DNA from: an uncultured Dehalococcoidales bacterium
Lineage (GTDB): Bacteria > Chloroflexota > Dehalococcoidia > Dehalococcoidales > UBA2162
Assembly (NCBI GenBank): GCA_964493985.1
Contig: CAZBQL010000005.1
Location: 1-54,534, forward strand
Reading direction: 5' to 3'
DNA: 54,534 nucleotides
A model generated the notes under the pieces. The model searched no databases. It was given only the letters and a program-made list of their open reading frames with translations, and had not been told where the DNA came from. The position numbers and the translations under genes were made by a program. The first letter of the stretch is position 1; the number at the start of each line of letters is the position of its first letter. Shown in pieces: positions 21,324 through 27,456 of the stretch.

Positions 21324-21578
21324 GTGACTGAAATAGTAGTTGACTGCACTGGCGAAACGTGCCCTGTACCCTTAGTTGAAACGCGTAAAGCCCTTCGAAA
21401 GGCCGCTGACGGTGATATCGTAGAGATTATTGGTACACATCCGGCTTCAAAGAAAGAAATCCCCATGGCTGTAAAGGCTTTAGGTCTGAAACTCCTGGGT
21501 ATAGAAGAATCCGGTGACACATGGAAAATCAGGATCCAGAAGGAAAAGGAGAGTCAGGATGGCCGAACAGCAGGATAA
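21324..21578 (+). CDS. tusA: TusA/SirA-family sulfur carrier
   Basis: VDCTGETCPVPLVETRKAL (CPxP); GTG start at 21324 after GGAGG. Confidence 0.9.
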   Translation: MTEIVVDCTGETCPVPLVETRKALRKAADGDIVEIIGTHPASKKEIPMAVKALGLKLLGIEESGDTWKIRIQKEKESQDGRTAG

Positions 21579-21987
21579 AGCCACAATAGTCGTTCACAGT
21601 GGCGATATGGACAAGCTCTATAGCGCCCTCATCATAGGAAACGGCGCCCTCGCTATGGGTATGGATGTATCACTGTTTTTCACCTTCTGGGGACTCCAGC
21701 GACTTAAAAAAGGCGGACTGGAGAAAGGGCCGTTATCAAAAATGAATATGTTTGGCCTTGGAAAACTCATGGTTAAGATGAAAATGAAGAAGCAGAACGT
21801 GGCTTCTCTCGAAAGAATGATGCAGGATTTCAAAGAACTTGGCGGGAAGATAATGGCCTGCGATATGACAATGGATATCATGGGTATTAAACCTGAAGAC
21901 CTTCGCCAGGACCTGATAGGAGATTACTGTGGAGTGGGGACGTACCTGGACGAAGCGAGAAATTCGAAAATTACCCTCTTTATCTAA
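21559..21987 (+). CDS. DsrE2-type (DsrE/F/H-like) sulfur relay protein
   Basis: ALIIGNGALAMG.DV.LFFTFWGL...IMACDMTMDIMGI; likely start MAEQQ at 21559, overlapping tusA. Confidence 0.88.
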   Translation: MAEQQDKATIVVHSGDMDKLYSALIIGNGALAMGMDVSLFFTFWGLQRLKKGGLEKGPLSKMNMFGLGKLMVKMKMKKQNVASLERMMQDFKELGGKIMACDMTMDIMGIKPEDLRQDLIGDYCGVGTYLDEARNSKITLFI

Positions 21988-21998
21988 ACCGGAGGGAA

Positions 21999-23171
21999 AT
22001 GATGCTTAATGAAAATCAGGTATACATGGACAACTCGGCAGCAACCCGGCTGGATGAAAAAGTACTGGATGCGATGAGACCCTACTTTTTCGAGCAGTAT
22101 GCTGTAGCTACATCTGAGTTCGCTTATTCTCAGGGAATAGAGGCCGGTGAAGCCCTTGAAGGAGCCAGGACGGTCTTAAGTGGAAAACTCGGTGGTACTC
22201 CTGAAGAGTTTATATTCACATCCGGCAGTACCGAATCATCTAATATTGCCCTCAAAGGTATGGCAATGACTGCTAAAAAGGGCAAGCATTTGATAATATC
22301 AAAAATAGAGGACTTCCCCGTATTGAACAGCGCAAAGGCTATGGAAAAACTGGGATATTCGGTTACGTATCTTGATGTTGACGGTGACGGATTCATAGAC
22401 CTAAAGACATTGGAAAAGGTTATAACGGATGAAACGTTCCTCGTTTCTATCCAGCACGCCAACCAGGAGATAGGTACTATACAGGACATAGGAGCAATCG
22501 GAAAAATCTGCAAGGAAAAGGGAGTGCCGTTTCACACCGACGCCACTCATACCTTCGGAAGGGTCCCTATCGATGTAAAGAAAGTACCGGTGGACCTGAT
22601 AACGGTGTCAGCGCACACCATTCACGGTCCGAAGGGTATAGGTGGCTTGTACATCCGTAAGGGGACGAAGCTGGGCAAGTGGATGGATGGCGGGTTCCAG
22701 GAATTCGACCTCCGTGCCGGATTTGAGAATATACCGGGCGCTATCGGCTTCGCCAGGGCTATTGAGCTGATAACGGAAGAGGAAACAGAAAAACTGCGGC
22801 AAATGAGAGACCATATCATCGACCGAATACTTTCCGAAATACCGGATGTAACATTGAACGGTCACCGGGAAAAACGGCTTCCGCAAAATGCAAACATCTC
22901 CTTCCACTACATCGAAGGTGAATCGATCACCCTGCATCTTGATATGCATGGTTACGCCGTAAACACCGGTTCGGCCTGTTTCAGTCGATCGCTGGAAGGA
23001 AGTCATGTTATATTCGGCATCGGCGGCGATCATGAAAGAGCGCATGGCTCAATACGGTTTACATTCGGAAGGTATAACACCATGGATGAAGTAGACGGTA
23101 TTGTGGACAGGCTGGGCGAGATAGCCGATGAATTAAGAAGTATCAGCCCGCTTGCCCCGGACAAGGATTAA
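21999..23171 (+). CDS. iscS: IscS/NifS-like protein with a degenerate PLP site
   Basis: Class V aminotransferase fold (YMDNSAAT, FTSGSTES, GSAC loop Cys), but SAHTIHGPKG in place of SxHKxxGPKG. Confidence 0.85.
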   Translation: MMLNENQVYMDNSAATRLDEKVLDAMRPYFFEQYAVATSEFAYSQGIEAGEALEGARTVLSGKLGGTPEEFIFTSGSTESSNIALKGMAMTAKKGKHLIISKIEDFPVLNSAKAMEKLGYSVTYLDVDGDGFIDLKTLEKVITDETFLVSIQHANQEIGTIQDIGAIGKICKEKGVPFHTDATHTFGRVPIDVKKVPVDLITVSAHTIHGPKGIGGLYIRKGTKLGKWMDGGFQEFDLRAGFENIPGAIGFARAIELITEEETEKLRQMRDHIIDRILSEIPDVTLNGHREKRLPQNANISFHYIEGESITLHLDMHGYAVNTGSACFSRSLEGSHVIFGIGGDHERAHGSIRFTFGRYNTMDEVDGIVDRLGEIADELRSISPLAPDKD

Positions 23172-23184
23172 AAGGAGGAAATTA

Positions 23185-23820
23185 ATGAAATCACCATACA
23201 CTGAAACGGTCCTGGAACATTTTCGTCACCCCCATAACGTAGGTAAAATAGAAAATGCCGATGGCAAAGCCCAGGAGGGCAGTCCCGCCTGTGGCGACAT
23301 GGTGGCGGTATATATAAACGTAGATGAAAAAACCAAAGTAATCGAGGACGTCAAGTTCGAGTCATACGGGTGCGCCTCCAATATAGCCACCGGGTCGATC
23401 ATAACCGACCTGGCAAAGGGAAAGACTATCGATGAAGCAAAGAAAATATCCTGGAAAGACGCATCGGACGCTCTCGGCGGATTGCCCAAGATAAAAGCTC
23501 ATTGTTCGGTACTGGCTATCGAAGGACTGAGATCGGCCATAGAAAATTACGAGGAAAGGCACGGCCTTGTCAAGGACAGGAAACCGACAAACATCGAAAC
23601 GGTGCGTACCCGCCTGAAGAAAGTAATGAATCCGATGGCTGGACTGGACCTGGTAAGAACTGAACTTGTCGAAGGCATCTCTGTGAAAAACGGTACAGTC
23701 AAGGTATCCATCTCTCTTCCGCCGGACCATCAATTCGCTCCGGCGATCAAGGAAGAGATCATGGAGAAAATCGAGCCACTGTGGGACGTGAACGAGGTTA
23801 TCGTAGAATTCACGGACTAG
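23185..23820 (+). CDS. iscU: IscU/NifU-N scaffold fused to a C-terminal DUF59/MIP18-like domain
   Basis: GSPACGD, FESYGCAS, KAHCS (three Cys); C-terminal LKKVMNP..GLDLV...V domain; AGGAGG RBS before ATG 23185. Confidence 0.88.
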   Translation: MKSPYTETVLEHFRHPHNVGKIENADGKAQEGSPACGDMVAVYINVDEKTKVIEDVKFESYGCASNIATGSIITDLAKGKTIDEAKKISWKDASDALGGLPKIKAHCSVLAIEGLRSAIENYEERHGLVKDRKPTNIETVRTRLKKVMNPMAGLDLVRTELVEGISVKNGTVKVSISLPPDHQFAPAIKEEIMEKIEPLWDVNEVIVEFTD

Positions 23821-24136: not shown

Positions 24137-26782
24137 ATGCCTGAAAAGACATCAGCGAAAAAAGAAAAGGCGAATATCATTGTCACCGGAATGACCTGTA
24201 CCAACTGCGCCGCTACCATAGAGAAGGGCCTGGCCGAAACCCCCGGCGTAGACAAGGCAAATGTCAATTTTGCTTCGGAAAAGGCATCCGTCGAATACGA
24301 CCCTGAAAAGGTCGATCTCAAAACACTTCATAAGACCATATCAGAACTCGGGTATGGTATAGCCACGAAAAAGTCCGTTTTCCCCGTCAGCGGGATGACC
24401 TGCGCGTCCTGTGTCGCACGAGTCGAAGAAGCGTTATCAAGTGTTCCCGGGGTAGTCTCTGCCAATGTTAACCTGGCCTCGGAAAAGGCAACAGTAGAAT
24501 ACACCGAAGGGACGAGTATAACTGATTTAAAGGCAGCAGTACACGATGCCGGCTATGAGTTAGGTTCAGAAGCCGAAACACTTGAAGATGTTACCGCGGC
24601 TTCACAGCGTGAGTTACGTGGTGTCAGGAACAGGTTTGTTTTTGCCGTCGTCCTGGCGGCGGTCATCATGCTGCTGATGTGGCTGCCGGATTTCACCGGT
24701 AAAAAATACCTGCTGTGGGCTCTGGCGACGCCGGTACAGTTCTGGGCGGGGCTTCGTTTTTACAGGGGAGCCTGGGGAGCGCTGAAACACCGGACAGCCG
24801 ATATGAACACGCTGGTAGCCGTCGGCACTTCGGCAGCATATTTCTATAGCGTGGTCGCCGTTCTGTTTCCCGGTGTCTTTACCGGCACCGGCGTAGAAGT
24901 GGCGCTGTATTTCGATACTTCGGCGATGATTATCGCCCTCATACTTCTCGGCCGGTTCCTGGAGACCCGAGCCCGTGGTCAGACATCGGAAGCTATAAAG
25001 AAACTGATAGGGCTGAATCCGAAAACAGCGCTTGTCGTACGCGACGGTAAGGAACAGGAAATCCCGGTAGATGAAGTCCTGGTCGGGGATATAATATTGG
25101 TCCGTCCCGGTGAACGAGTGCCTGTGGATGGGGTAATCCGCGAAGGATACTCCAGTATCGACGAGTCGATGATAACCGGAGAGAGTATTCCCGTAGAGAA
25201 GAACGTCGGAGATGAAGTGATTGGCGCTTCTATCAACAAGACCGGCAGCTTCAGGTTCGAAGCGACGCGTGTTGGTAAGGATACCACCCTTGCCCGTATC
25301 ATCCGGCTGGTTGAAGAAGCTCAAGGAAGCAAGGCGCCTATCCAGCGGCTGGCAGATATCATTGCCAGTTATTTCGTGCCAATGGTCATAAGCATATCGA
25401 TCATCACATTCATAATCTGGTATTTCGCCGGACCGCCGCCGGCTCTTACGTACGCCCTGCTTAATTTCGTGGCTGTGCTGATCATTGCCTGCCCCTGCGC
25501 GATGGGACTGGCAACACCCACCGCCATTATCGTTGGTACCGGTAAGGGCGCTGAACATGGTATTCTGATACGCAGCGCTGAGACGCTTGAAAAAACGCAC
25601 AAGATAAACACGGTAATGCTGGACAAGACCGGAACTCTGACGCGGGGCGAACCCATGGTAACCGACGTCATTCCGGCACTATCCAGAGCCTACATCCTGA
25701 AAATGGCAGCCGCCGCAGAGTATGGTTCGGAACACCCGCTGGGCGAAGCTATCATAAGAGCAGCCACGATGGAAGGCCTGGAATTACCATCCGCTTCCGG
25801 TTTTAACGCCATCCCCGGACAGGGAGTAGAAGCAGTCATCGATAAACAGAATATAGTCCTGGGAAATCTCAGGCTCATCAATGATAAAAATTTGTCCCTT
25901 AACGGACTAAATGACGAAGCGGAAAAATTCCGTAATGAAGGCAAAACGATAATGTACCTGGGGACTGACGGAAAAGTTGAAGGTATTATCGCGCTTGCCG
26001 ATACATTGAAACCGGATGCTGTCGCTTCGGTAAAAGCACTGCAGGATATGGGCACCGAGGTGGTGATGGTGACAGGTGACAATTCCCGAACAGCCGAAGC
26101 TATTGCACGTGAGGCGGGAATAGACCGTGTCCTGGCTGAGGTACTACCCGAGAACAAGGCAGAAGAAGTAAAGAAATTACAGGAACAGGGCAGGATGGTC
26201 GCGATGGTCGGCGACGGCATCAACGACGCCCCGGCACTTGCACAGGCAGACGTAGGAATAGCCATCGGCACCGGCACGGACGTGGCTATGGAGACGGGAG
26301 ATATTACCCTGATAAGCGGCGACCTCGGGGGAATAGCCACTGCTATATCATTGAGCAAACGTACCGTGAGGACGATAAAGCAGAACCTGTTCTGGGCATT
26401 CGCCTACAACACGGTGCTGATACCGGTTGCGGCGGGAGTGCTGTACCTGGTATTCCATAACGGCGGAGTACCTTCAGGACTGCATTTTATCCTTGGTGAC
26501 TATGGTTTTCTCAATCCGATCCTGGCGGCAGCAGCGATGGCTTTAAGTTCTATCACGGTGGTATCGAACTCACTCCGGCTCAAGAGATACAGGCCGGTAA
26601 AAATAAAATCAAACATGGGAGGTAACACAATGGCAAAGGCAATAGACCCGGTGTGCAAGATGGAAATCGAGGAGAGTTCCGCAGCGGCAACTTCGGAATA
26701 CAAAGGGAAGAAATACTATTTCTGCGCCAAAGGCTGCAAGGTAGCCTTCGACAAGGACCCGCAGAAGTATCTGGCCGGGTAA
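24137..26782 (+). CDS. copA: Cu(I)-translocating P1B ATPase with two HMA domains and a C-terminal YHS domain
   Basis: [40 protein letters not shown]-terminal DPVCKM...YYFCAKGC. Confidence 0.95.
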
Positions 26783-26800: not shown

Positions 26801-26831
26801 AAAAAGGACGTGATTTCTCACGTCCTTTTTT
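26801..26831. terminator. Bidirectional intrinsic terminator
   Basis: AAAAAGGACGTGA-TTTC-TCACGTCCTTTTTT. Confidence 0.85.
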
Positions 26832-26851
26832 GTTCAATCGGGATTACACCG

Positions 26852-26966
26852 TCATACCTGACCGCCTATGTCGGCGCTTACCAGCAGGACAGTGAGTTTT
26901 TTCCGTGCCGCAAAACGCGGCGGCGAGTCCTGCCGAACCCGCCCCCATTATTATCAATTCAGACAT
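26852..26966 (-). pseudogene. Truncated, frameshifted thioredoxin reductase (TrxB/AhpF-like) N-terminal remnant
   Basis: MSELIIMGAGSAGLAAAF / frameshift / AARKKLTVLLVSADIGGQV* matches the FAD-binding start of TrxB; GGGAG RBS; directly follows the glutaredoxin. Confidence 0.75.
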
Positions 26967-27011
26967 TGTGTCTCCCGCCGCTGTGATTTACAGGAAGCTG
27001 GCTGTAACTCT

Positions 27012-27248
27012 TTATGCCAGGAGTTTTTCAAGTTCAGCCTGGTTAAAGCCGACGACGATGGTATCATCGACAATCACTACCGGAACACCCATCTGCTTGG
27101 ATTTCTCAACCATTTCCCGGGCTTTGTCTTTATCCTGGGCAACATTATATTCCGTATAAGTAACGTTTTTCTGGGAAAGATACTCTTTCACTCTCGTGCA
27201 CCAGGGTCAAGTCGGGGTAGAATATACAACCACGTTCTTCTCCGCCAT
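27012..27248 (-). CDS. Glutaredoxin-like (NrdH/YruB-type) selenoprotein, UxxC motif; absent from ORF track
   Basis: MAEKNVVVYSTPT-TGA-PWCTRVKEYL...QMGVPVVIVDDTIVVGFNQAELEKLLA*; TGA (27209-27207) sits at the first Cys position of CxxC; GGAGG RBS. Confidence 0.85.
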
Positions 27249-27456
27249 TCTCACTCCTCCGTGTATTATAACGATATATATAATCAGTATACTATATTAT
27301 TCGCAGCCTTGTCTCATAAAAGGTCCTTATGGACCTAAACACCATTTCTTATTATAATCAAGTTTTCCATACCTCAATAAATCATTTATCTTCACGAAGA
27401 ATCTTATTGTAAGTGGAAAATAATGCATGGCGGAAAATTTCCTCCGTGAAAAATGC

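Follow-up and report, generated by a model that had tools for sequence, protein, structure and literature searches.

A probable selenocysteine-decoded Cp9/YruB-type redoxin gene with a candidate SECIS hairpin in an uncultured Dehalococcoidales bacterium

An interrupted redoxin gene

The 54,534-nucleotide stretch of DNA analysed here (the window; contig CAZBQL010000005.1 of assembly GCA_964493985.1, from an uncultured Dehalococcoidales bacterium) carries a small redoxin gene whose reading frame is interrupted by a TGA codon and which, judging from its relatives, is very likely a genuine selenoprotein gene. An earlier note on this DNA had described a ribosome-binding site with an ATG, 13 codons, a TGA and 64 further codons, and we find exactly this arrangement on the minus strand, at the coordinates given in Table 1. 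With selenocysteine (Sec, U) at the TGA, the translation shows the redox motif U14-P-W-C17, an MGVPV segment (cis-Pro GVP) and a VVGF segment; the 64 codons of the open reading frame (ORF) between the TGA and the TAA give PWCTRVKEYLSQKNV...KQMGVPVVIVDDTIVVGFNQAELEKLLA. For the whole explanation, a Sec-decoded redoxin of the Cp9/YruB type that would use Sec as its attacking active-site residue, we estimate a probability of roughly 0.85.

The mechanical ORF list holds only a 59-residue piece of this gene, starting from a GTG 3' of the TGA (27191..27012). The public records that we checked contain either a truncated product of 59-61 residues or a full-length product with tryptophan (W) at the site, and for those records the earlier remark that gene callers miss the gene is borne out. 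An exact look-up of the redoxin with X at the site returned no record. On the plus strand, a spurious antisense ORF of 156 residues (26868-27338) covers the entire gene, and a gene caller could choose it over the true, TGA-interrupted one.

The TGA is not an assembly error, since Logan contigs from two independent salt-marsh metagenomes (X1 contig 7 and X2 contig 9) carry it without any difference at 27207-27209. It is probably transcribed as well: metatranscriptome contigs of 90-95% relatives span it and, among the variants listed, none falls at 27169-27218. The organism itself was found in salt-marsh, marine, freshwater-sediment and rhizosphere metagenomes, and relatives of the redoxin gene are present in rhizosphere, sediment and mangrove metatranscriptomes (runs X1-X24 and X25-X33). 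The region 5' of the gene varies between strains, because one contig (L104) with a RecA identical to that of the window and a near-identical GAF-domain protein (L104:1-800 versus window ~27320-27400) has a different gene of 241 residues, with no Pfam match, in place of the redoxin gene, and contigs of runs X5 and X27 part from the window sequence beyond about 27319.

Profile and structure comparisons were made with the TGA read as cysteine (Cys). The product matches Pfam Glutaredoxin PF00462 over residues 6-64 (7e-20, 71.4 bits against a cutoff of 22.9) and NCBIfam TIGR02196 (GlrX_YruB) with 100.8 bits, above the curated cutoff of 88.55; its 78 residues are within the 75-80 of that family, whose C-P-[YW]-C type of motif appears here as U-P-W-C. 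Its relatives in the PDB are 7c10, aligned end to end (4e-17), and the Cp9-like thioredoxin BC3987 (3zit, 1e-11), while 4tr0, the structure of the selenoprotein glutaredoxin (Grx) of Clostridium oremlandii, matches only at E=1.7e-6. On these Pfam and PDB sequence matches, the assignment to the glutaredoxin fold is unambiguous. Three narrower assignments were tried and rejected. The model of the classic Grx3, dependent on glutathione (GSH), stays below its cutoff (TIGR02181, 62.9 against 90 bits). So does that of NrdH-redoxin (TIGR02194, 43.9 against 85.75 bits), for which the motif is also UPWC and not C-[VMI]-Q-C, with no nrd genes nearby. The UXX-star (seleno)protein models NF041212, NF041114 and NF041211 are all missed (62.4<66, 42.1<72 and 42.4<100); the C-terminus reads ...KLLA-TAA, with no TGA or Sec there. 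The name glutaredoxin given in the earlier note can thus be refined, as the TIGR02196 and PDB matches point to a Cp9/YruB-type redoxin and not to the classic GSH-dependent type.

The TGA and its hairpin across homologs

Two groups of full-length relatives came out of a protein search: the closest (74-97% identity) have W at the site, and remoter ones, many of them named Dehalococcoidia, have Cys. All three W-form relatives that were checked at the DNA level have an in-frame TGA, and the W-form records are gene calls in which TGA was read as Trp (code 4). A scan of one genome per species found the TGA in four Dehalococcoidia metagenome-assembled genomes (MAGs; L004-L007), at 95, 90, 73 and 62% identity and with UPYC in one of them, and Cys forms in Clostridia, Patescibacteria and others; a metagenome scan yielded 19 further TGA loci. 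The earlier note had envisaged a simple nonsense mutation that close homologs would not share. On the contrary, the in-frame TGA is kept at position 1 of the CxxC motif in 26 other loci, down to about 45% protein identity and up to 97% (Sec-type loci L001-L007, L026, L028, L031, L032, L035, L037, L039, L044, L047, L050-L052, L057, L058, L060, L063, L069, L072 and L074). The motifs across the 27 loci, window included, are UPWC, UPYC and UPHC. When aligned with Cys-containing homologs, as the earlier note had also proposed, the Sec column holds TGT or TGC in 55 homologous loci, the Sec/Cys pair. One Sec-type redoxin (L069:4612-5133; UPYC, conserved hairpin, loop GUU) is fused C-terminally to a PDZ domain, for a total of 173 residues.

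Among the 25 unique Sec-type genes, all of which have the TGA (25/25), amino acids are conserved and synonymous variation is near-saturated at codons -9..-1 and +1..+61. Since both hold on either side of the TGA, the 13 codons 5' of it must be translated in frame with the rest. The near-saturation of synonymous sites also implies that the Sec loci are old independent lineages, and not copies of one mutant.

In the window, the core of the hairpin begins 17 nt 3' of the UGA, and counting from the UGA the loop G is nucleotide 24. Published criteria for bacterial selenocysteine insertion sequences (SECIS) are a loop of 3-9 nt, a stem of 4-16 bp, a G in loop positions 1-2, a distance of 16-37 nt from UGA to loop and a minimum free energy (MFE) of at most -7.5 kcal/mol (PMC13188914). 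The loop GUA (or A-GUA-U), the 6-bp stem and the 23-nt spacing of the window hairpin are all within these limits. Its energy is borderline, at -6.8 kcal/mol for 42 nt (z-score -0.45) and -7.9 kcal/mol for 63 nt. The reason is a U·C mismatch (Ser codon TCC) in the second pair of the stem, which in the family consensus comprises 8 bp (27173..27191 in the window). The nearest relatives of the window (L001, L004 and L005) are likewise mismatched at this pair. The 19-nt core alone stands out from shuffled sequences (z -4.6), the 76-nt context does not (z +0.79), and an Rfam scan of the window at gathering threshold gave no match. Single-sequence folding could not decide, and it was therefore the comparative data that settled the hairpin question.

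Every Sec form of the Dehalococcoidia-type clade has a hairpin in the same position, mostly with the 8-bp stem GYGAAAGA/UCUUUCRC, and members with the full stem reach about -10 to -11 kcal/mol. Over 26 distinct sequences, 92.8% of cells are paired, versus 34-62% with slid partners; one pair shows a compensatory change between C-G and U-A, two show G-U wobble, and five are near-invariant. The hairpin is written in the codons for A/V-K-E-Y-L-S, and the use of these codons shows the constraint. Normalised synonymous diversity is 0.11 at codons +6..+10 (GCG AAA GAG TAT CTT) and 0.83 elsewhere (five hairpin codons versus the other 58, Mann-Whitney U test, p=2e-4), and the lowest 5-codon sliding window of the gene is exactly +6..+10. 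Sec genes use GCG in 14 of 14 cases, GAG in 24/24, TAT in 23/24 and CTT in 23/24, the last out of six possible Leu codons.

Cys forms, in contrast, encode the same or a similar peptide at the hairpin site with varied codons, and their mean fold energy there is -2.7 kcal/mol, compared with -8.1 for Sec forms (p=2e-9). In a neighbour-joining tree, Sec forms fill one clade, within which nine Cys forms are scattered. The hairpin of these nested Cys forms is intact in L034 (GCGAAAGAGUAUCUUUCGC), nearly intact in L029, half lost in L027 and L054, and lost in L024, L033 and L041. Such graded decay is what would be expected from relaxation after a Sec-to-Cys conversion, and these hairpins look like 'fossil' SECIS elements. 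In another Cys form, L025, the SECIS site folds into a different hairpin, and a strong one (-12.1 kcal/mol). Taken together, the sequence comparisons indicate that the hairpin is under RNA-level selection and that this selection depends on the TGA. A different solution is seen in L058 (SUPWC, on a Clostridia-like branch; L058:100-152), with a hairpin AGGUAA-AGGA-UUACCU of 6 bp located 19 nt after the UGA and likewise within the bacterial SECIS criteria. This difference points to a separate origin or to a SECIS that was replaced.

The two central proposals of the earlier note have thus gained support: the hidden selenoprotein through the conservation of the TGA and the selection on the hairpin, and the candidate SECIS through the suppression of synonymous change at the hairpin and its absence or decay in Cys forms. 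The pairing that had been drawn requires an amendment. Its CUGG/CCAG stem, inner stem and loop G all exist, but the outer stem is predicted in the window and L004 only and so is no conserved part of the element.

Table 1. Features of the redoxin locus, in window coordinates
Feature	Position	Strand	Details or basis
Probable selenoprotein gene, Cp9/YruB-type glutaredoxin-like redoxin of 78 residues	27012..27248	minus	MAEKNVVVYSTPT-U-PWCTRV...LLA; TAA included
Shine-Dalgarno sequence GGAGGAG, 5 nt 5' of ATG	27254..27260	minus	sequence read directly
ATG start	27248..27246	minus	followed by 13 codons, MAEKNVVVYSTPT
In-frame TGA, probable Sec codon (residue 14, position 1 of the UPWC redox motif)	27207..27209	minus	comparison with homologs
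64 codons 3' of the TGA, PWCTRVKEYLSQKNV...MGVPVVIVDDTIVVGFNQAELEKLLA	TAA stop at 27014..27012	minus	translation
Candidate SECIS hairpin, core	27175..27189	minus	stem GAAAGA (27189..27184)/UCUUUC (27180..27175), loop GUA (27183..27181)
Extended hairpin	27171..27204	minus	outer stem CUGG (27204..27201)/CCAG (27174..27171) around the core, in the MFE structure
Decayed remnant of a flavoprotein gene (thioredoxin reductase (TrxR)/AhpF-C-terminal-like)	26844..26966	minus	MSELIIMGAGSAGLAAAF, frameshift near 26912, then AARKKLTVLLVSADIGGQV and stop
Terminator-like hairpin separating copA (convergent) from the redoxin/remnant unit	26801..26830	minus (strand of the scan result)	terminator scan and sequence
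Copper-translocating P-type ATPase CopA, convergent neighbour	24137..26782	plus	NCBIfam TIGR01511, 626.7 bits

Selenium and the competing readings of the TGA

The Sec trait is established at the level of the class Dehalococcoidia. In Dehalogenimonas alkenigignens, selC is accompanied by genes for making selenocysteine and for a Sec-specific elongation factor, and both SelD and FdhA contain Sec (PMC4918011). Two MAGs of the class, one with 49 and the other with 46 selenoprotein genes, rank among the ten richest bacteria in BSepDB (PMC13326102). For the organism of the window, we infer the actual insertion of Sec, the presence of selABCD in the genome and the redox partners. Following established bacterial Sec biology, the hairpin, which lies within the coding sequence, would recruit SelB carrying Sec-tRNA(Sec); the Sec-tRNA would thus be placed at the UGA, 23 nt before the loop, and the UGA would be read as Sec rather than as a stop.

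Several observations weigh against this account. ARAGORN finds no tRNA gene in the window and no tRNA-Sec in 24 related loci. The window holds no selA, selB or selD, and a tblastn search with the E. coli SelA, SelB and SelD against the window and all fetched loci returned only LepA-type GTPase cross-matches in Cys-form loci. The window hairpin is weak, since its -6.8 kcal/mol over 42 nt falls short of -7.5 and resembles shuffled sequences of that length. Classical covariation is thin and the shuffle control only marginal (25/500), so that the case rests on the suppression of synonymous change and on the contrast between Sec and Cys forms; these contrasts are in turn not phylogenetically independent, because Sec forms are largely one clade. 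Finally, the cognate reductase gene is a remnant in the window.

The alternative that fares best, although we consider it unlikely, is a decoding of the UGA without selenium, either under code 4 or 25, as Trp or Gly, or through read-through by a near-cognate tRNA (Trp, Cys). Public gene calls do have W at the site, and UGA followed by C, as found here, is a leaky termination context. TGA is also a rare stop: it ends two of the 37 long ORFs of the window (TAA ends 23 and TAG 12), and none of 18 in L004 and L006, a striking rarity in this sub-lineage given a GC content of about 49% (15/90 in Sec-type loci overall). However, under code 11 the 37 long ORFs are intact and have full-length Pfam matches, TGA does serve two of them as a stop, the window has no further gene with an in-frame TGA, and the tRNA-Trp of related loci has the anticodon CCA, so TGA is no general sense codon. 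The W calls are TGA in the DNA, and homologs have Cys at the attacking position of the CxxC motif, where W or G would abolish redox activity. Nor does plain read-through account for the hairpin, with its fit to the SECIS model and its conservation tied to the TGA.

A pseudogene, in which a nonsense mutation turned the Cys codon (TGT or TGC) of a glutaredoxin-like gene into TGA, is very improbable. A single substitution would suffice for it, the partner gene next door has itself decayed to a remnant, and the weakness of the window hairpin is also compatible with it. Still, a TGA shared with 26 other loci of such diversity is not that of one recent clone, purifying selection acts on the protein on both sides of it and RNA-level selection on the hairpin 3' of it, and start codon, ribosome-binding site and stop are intact. 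That the true product is the 59-residue ORF, with the 13 codons as a leader and the hairpin as a regulatory element, we regard as practically negligible: its GTG at 27191 exists, overlaps with the hairpin and is the start of the same ORF in public collections, but that ORF is devoid of strand beta-1 and of the entire active-site motif, conservation as in-frame protein with synonymous variation extends over the 13 codons before the TGA, the strong ribosome-binding site precedes the upstream ATG and not the GTG, and many relatives have Ala (GCG) at the GTG position and hence no start codon there.

Neighbouring genes, proposed function and significance

An intact TrxR/AhpF-C-terminal-like gene (~305 residues) lies directly beside the redoxin gene in 12 related loci, of both Sec and Cys forms; in L026 its product matches the reductase half of AhpF (residues 213-512, 3.7e-99) and TrxR (3.2e-87). 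In the window, the reductase is present only as the remnant (~40 codons), which aligns with the N-terminus of the intact 303-residue gene found 3' of the redoxin in L026, L028, L047, L024, L025 and L033 and ends in front of the copA terminator, and no peroxiredoxin gene adjoins the redoxin gene. An extra base at 26912 is seen in contigs of runs X2 and X3 and, in part, of X1; this 1-base insertion would probably restore the frame of the remnant, leaving the ORF still truncated. With its reductase gene decayed, the proposed electron path is incomplete at this locus, and the redoxin must depend on a reductase encoded elsewhere. In four loci, a rubrerythrin-like gene lies about 0.2-2.7 kb upstream on the opposite strand.

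The convergent copA is found beside the redoxin gene in 11 loci (7 Sec-type and 4 Cys-type). The terminator-like hairpin that separates them in the window is probably bidirectional, with T runs on both sides. CopA has two N-terminal CxxC metal-binding domains, and its C-terminal tail (DPVCKMEI...YYFCAKGCK) resembles a YHS/TRASH-type domain. A functional link between thiol/selenol redox chemistry and copper is possible from this gene arrangement. Just upstream of copA (21514-23820), the window has genes for DsrE/DrsE_2-like, NifS-like class-V aminotransferase and NifU-like proteins, and NifS/NifU are also found in L006. The DsrE-like gene (21514-21987) has no upstream in-frame TGA extension and so is not a selenoprotein gene here. 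When the window was scanned for other selenoprotein genes, nothing turned up beyond antisense shadows and short extensions of ORFs past genuine TGA stops, and a scan of the Sec-type loci for further ones gave nothing convincing.

The function of the redoxin may be read from its family (Cp9/YruB) and from this neighbourhood, which are the reasons for proposing a carrier role. In Clostridium pasteurianum, Cp9 carries electrons from the NADH-dependent TrxR-like Cp34 to the peroxiredoxin Cp20 (PMC3720550). By analogy, U14 and C17 would form a selenenylsulfide-selenol/thiol couple. A TrxR/AhpF-like flavoprotein dependent on NAD(P)H would supply it with electrons, which it would hand on to disulfides or sulfenic acids in proteins, probably those of peroxide defence such as peroxiredoxin. 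Sec would serve as a faster nucleophile and leaving group than Cys, and faster exchange by Sec has been reported for the selenoprotein Grx and thioredoxin (Trx) of Clostridium (PMC13188914). We lean slightly towards such a role, in which the redoxin would depend on a TrxR/AhpF-like protein and serve the defence against peroxides or disulfides. The resemblance to Cp9 includes TIGR02196, size, the C-P-[YW]-C type of motif and the TrxR/AhpF-like neighbour in the 12 relatives; the differences are that Cp9 has Cys and that at the window locus the reductase is a remnant and a peroxiredoxin gene does not adjoin.

Sec-containing glutaredoxins (PF00462, UxxC) are an experimentally verified bacterial selenoprotein family (PMC13188914; also PMC9312934 and PMC4479559), and current selenoprotein classifications would file the window gene there, under 'Glutaredoxin (Grx), PF00462, UxxC'. 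The Grx1 of C. oremlandii (Clostridium sp. OhILAs), with U13/C16 (PMC4479559), shares with it the small Grx fold, the N-terminal UxxC (U14/C17 in the window) and the location of the SECIS within the coding region. Unlike the window redoxin, Grx1 is Grx3-like, GSH-binding and able to reduce MsrA, and it comes from Clostridia rather than Dehalococcoidia. Among the open-access papers searched, none pairs 'YruB' with 'selenoprotein'.

The UXX-star families are likewise selenoproteins of anaerobic sediment bacteria with a TIGR02196-related Grx-like fold, and NCBI names a Cys-form relative of the redoxin (P0083) 'Uxx-star family glutaredoxin-like (seleno)protein'. This name presumably points to another Sec, located three residues ahead of the stop. 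The window redoxin differs from them in having UxxC and no C-terminal Sec. Reviews give these families a UxxT or GxGU motif, and two Sec to family 1 (PMC13188914, PMC9312934), and a 'Distant Grx-like protein 1' with UxxT, mapped to TIGR02196, is already known (PMC9312934). The TIGR02187 protein, in turn, has a UxxC thioredoxin-fold module that would receive electrons from an AhpF-type flavoprotein, much as the partner of the redoxin family best matches AhpF 213-512. It has two Trx folds, unlike the single 78-residue domain of the window redoxin, which matches the model with 20.9 bits against a cutoff of 185.

The redoxin gene changes nothing in what is known of the mechanism of Sec decoding or of the existence of Sec-glutaredoxins, and selenoproteomes of Dehalococcoidia had been catalogued before. 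What may be new is modest: the Cp9/YruB rather than Grx3 subtype, a clade-wide, near-invariant SECIS that decays in Cys revertants, and the presence of the gene in the checked public records solely as a truncated or W-containing product. Through it, a class already recognised as rich in selenoproteins gains a Cp9/YruB-type carrier. It is also wrong in the records checked, either as a fragment without the active site or with Trp for the catalytic residue; inventories of redox defence in sediment Dehalococcoidia therefore under-count it. For the evolution of SECIS elements, it offers a natural experiment in which the same five codons are frozen after TGA and drift after TGY.

A broader interpretation, which we put forward tentatively and at somewhat less than even odds, is that the Sec forms of Dehalococcoidia are a distinct, not separately described subfamily of the Cp9/YruB type. 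Such a subfamily would have its own almost invariant SECIS, GYGAAAGAGUAUCUUUCRC, written in the KEYLS codons; it would have been repeatedly converted to Cys, with 'fossil' SECIS hairpins left behind; and its partner in a selenium-dependent system of defence against peroxides or disulfides would be a short AhpF-like reductase. If this were true, the lineage of the window, with its reductase lost and its SECIS weakened, would show a system that is being rewired to another reductase or is nearing loss.

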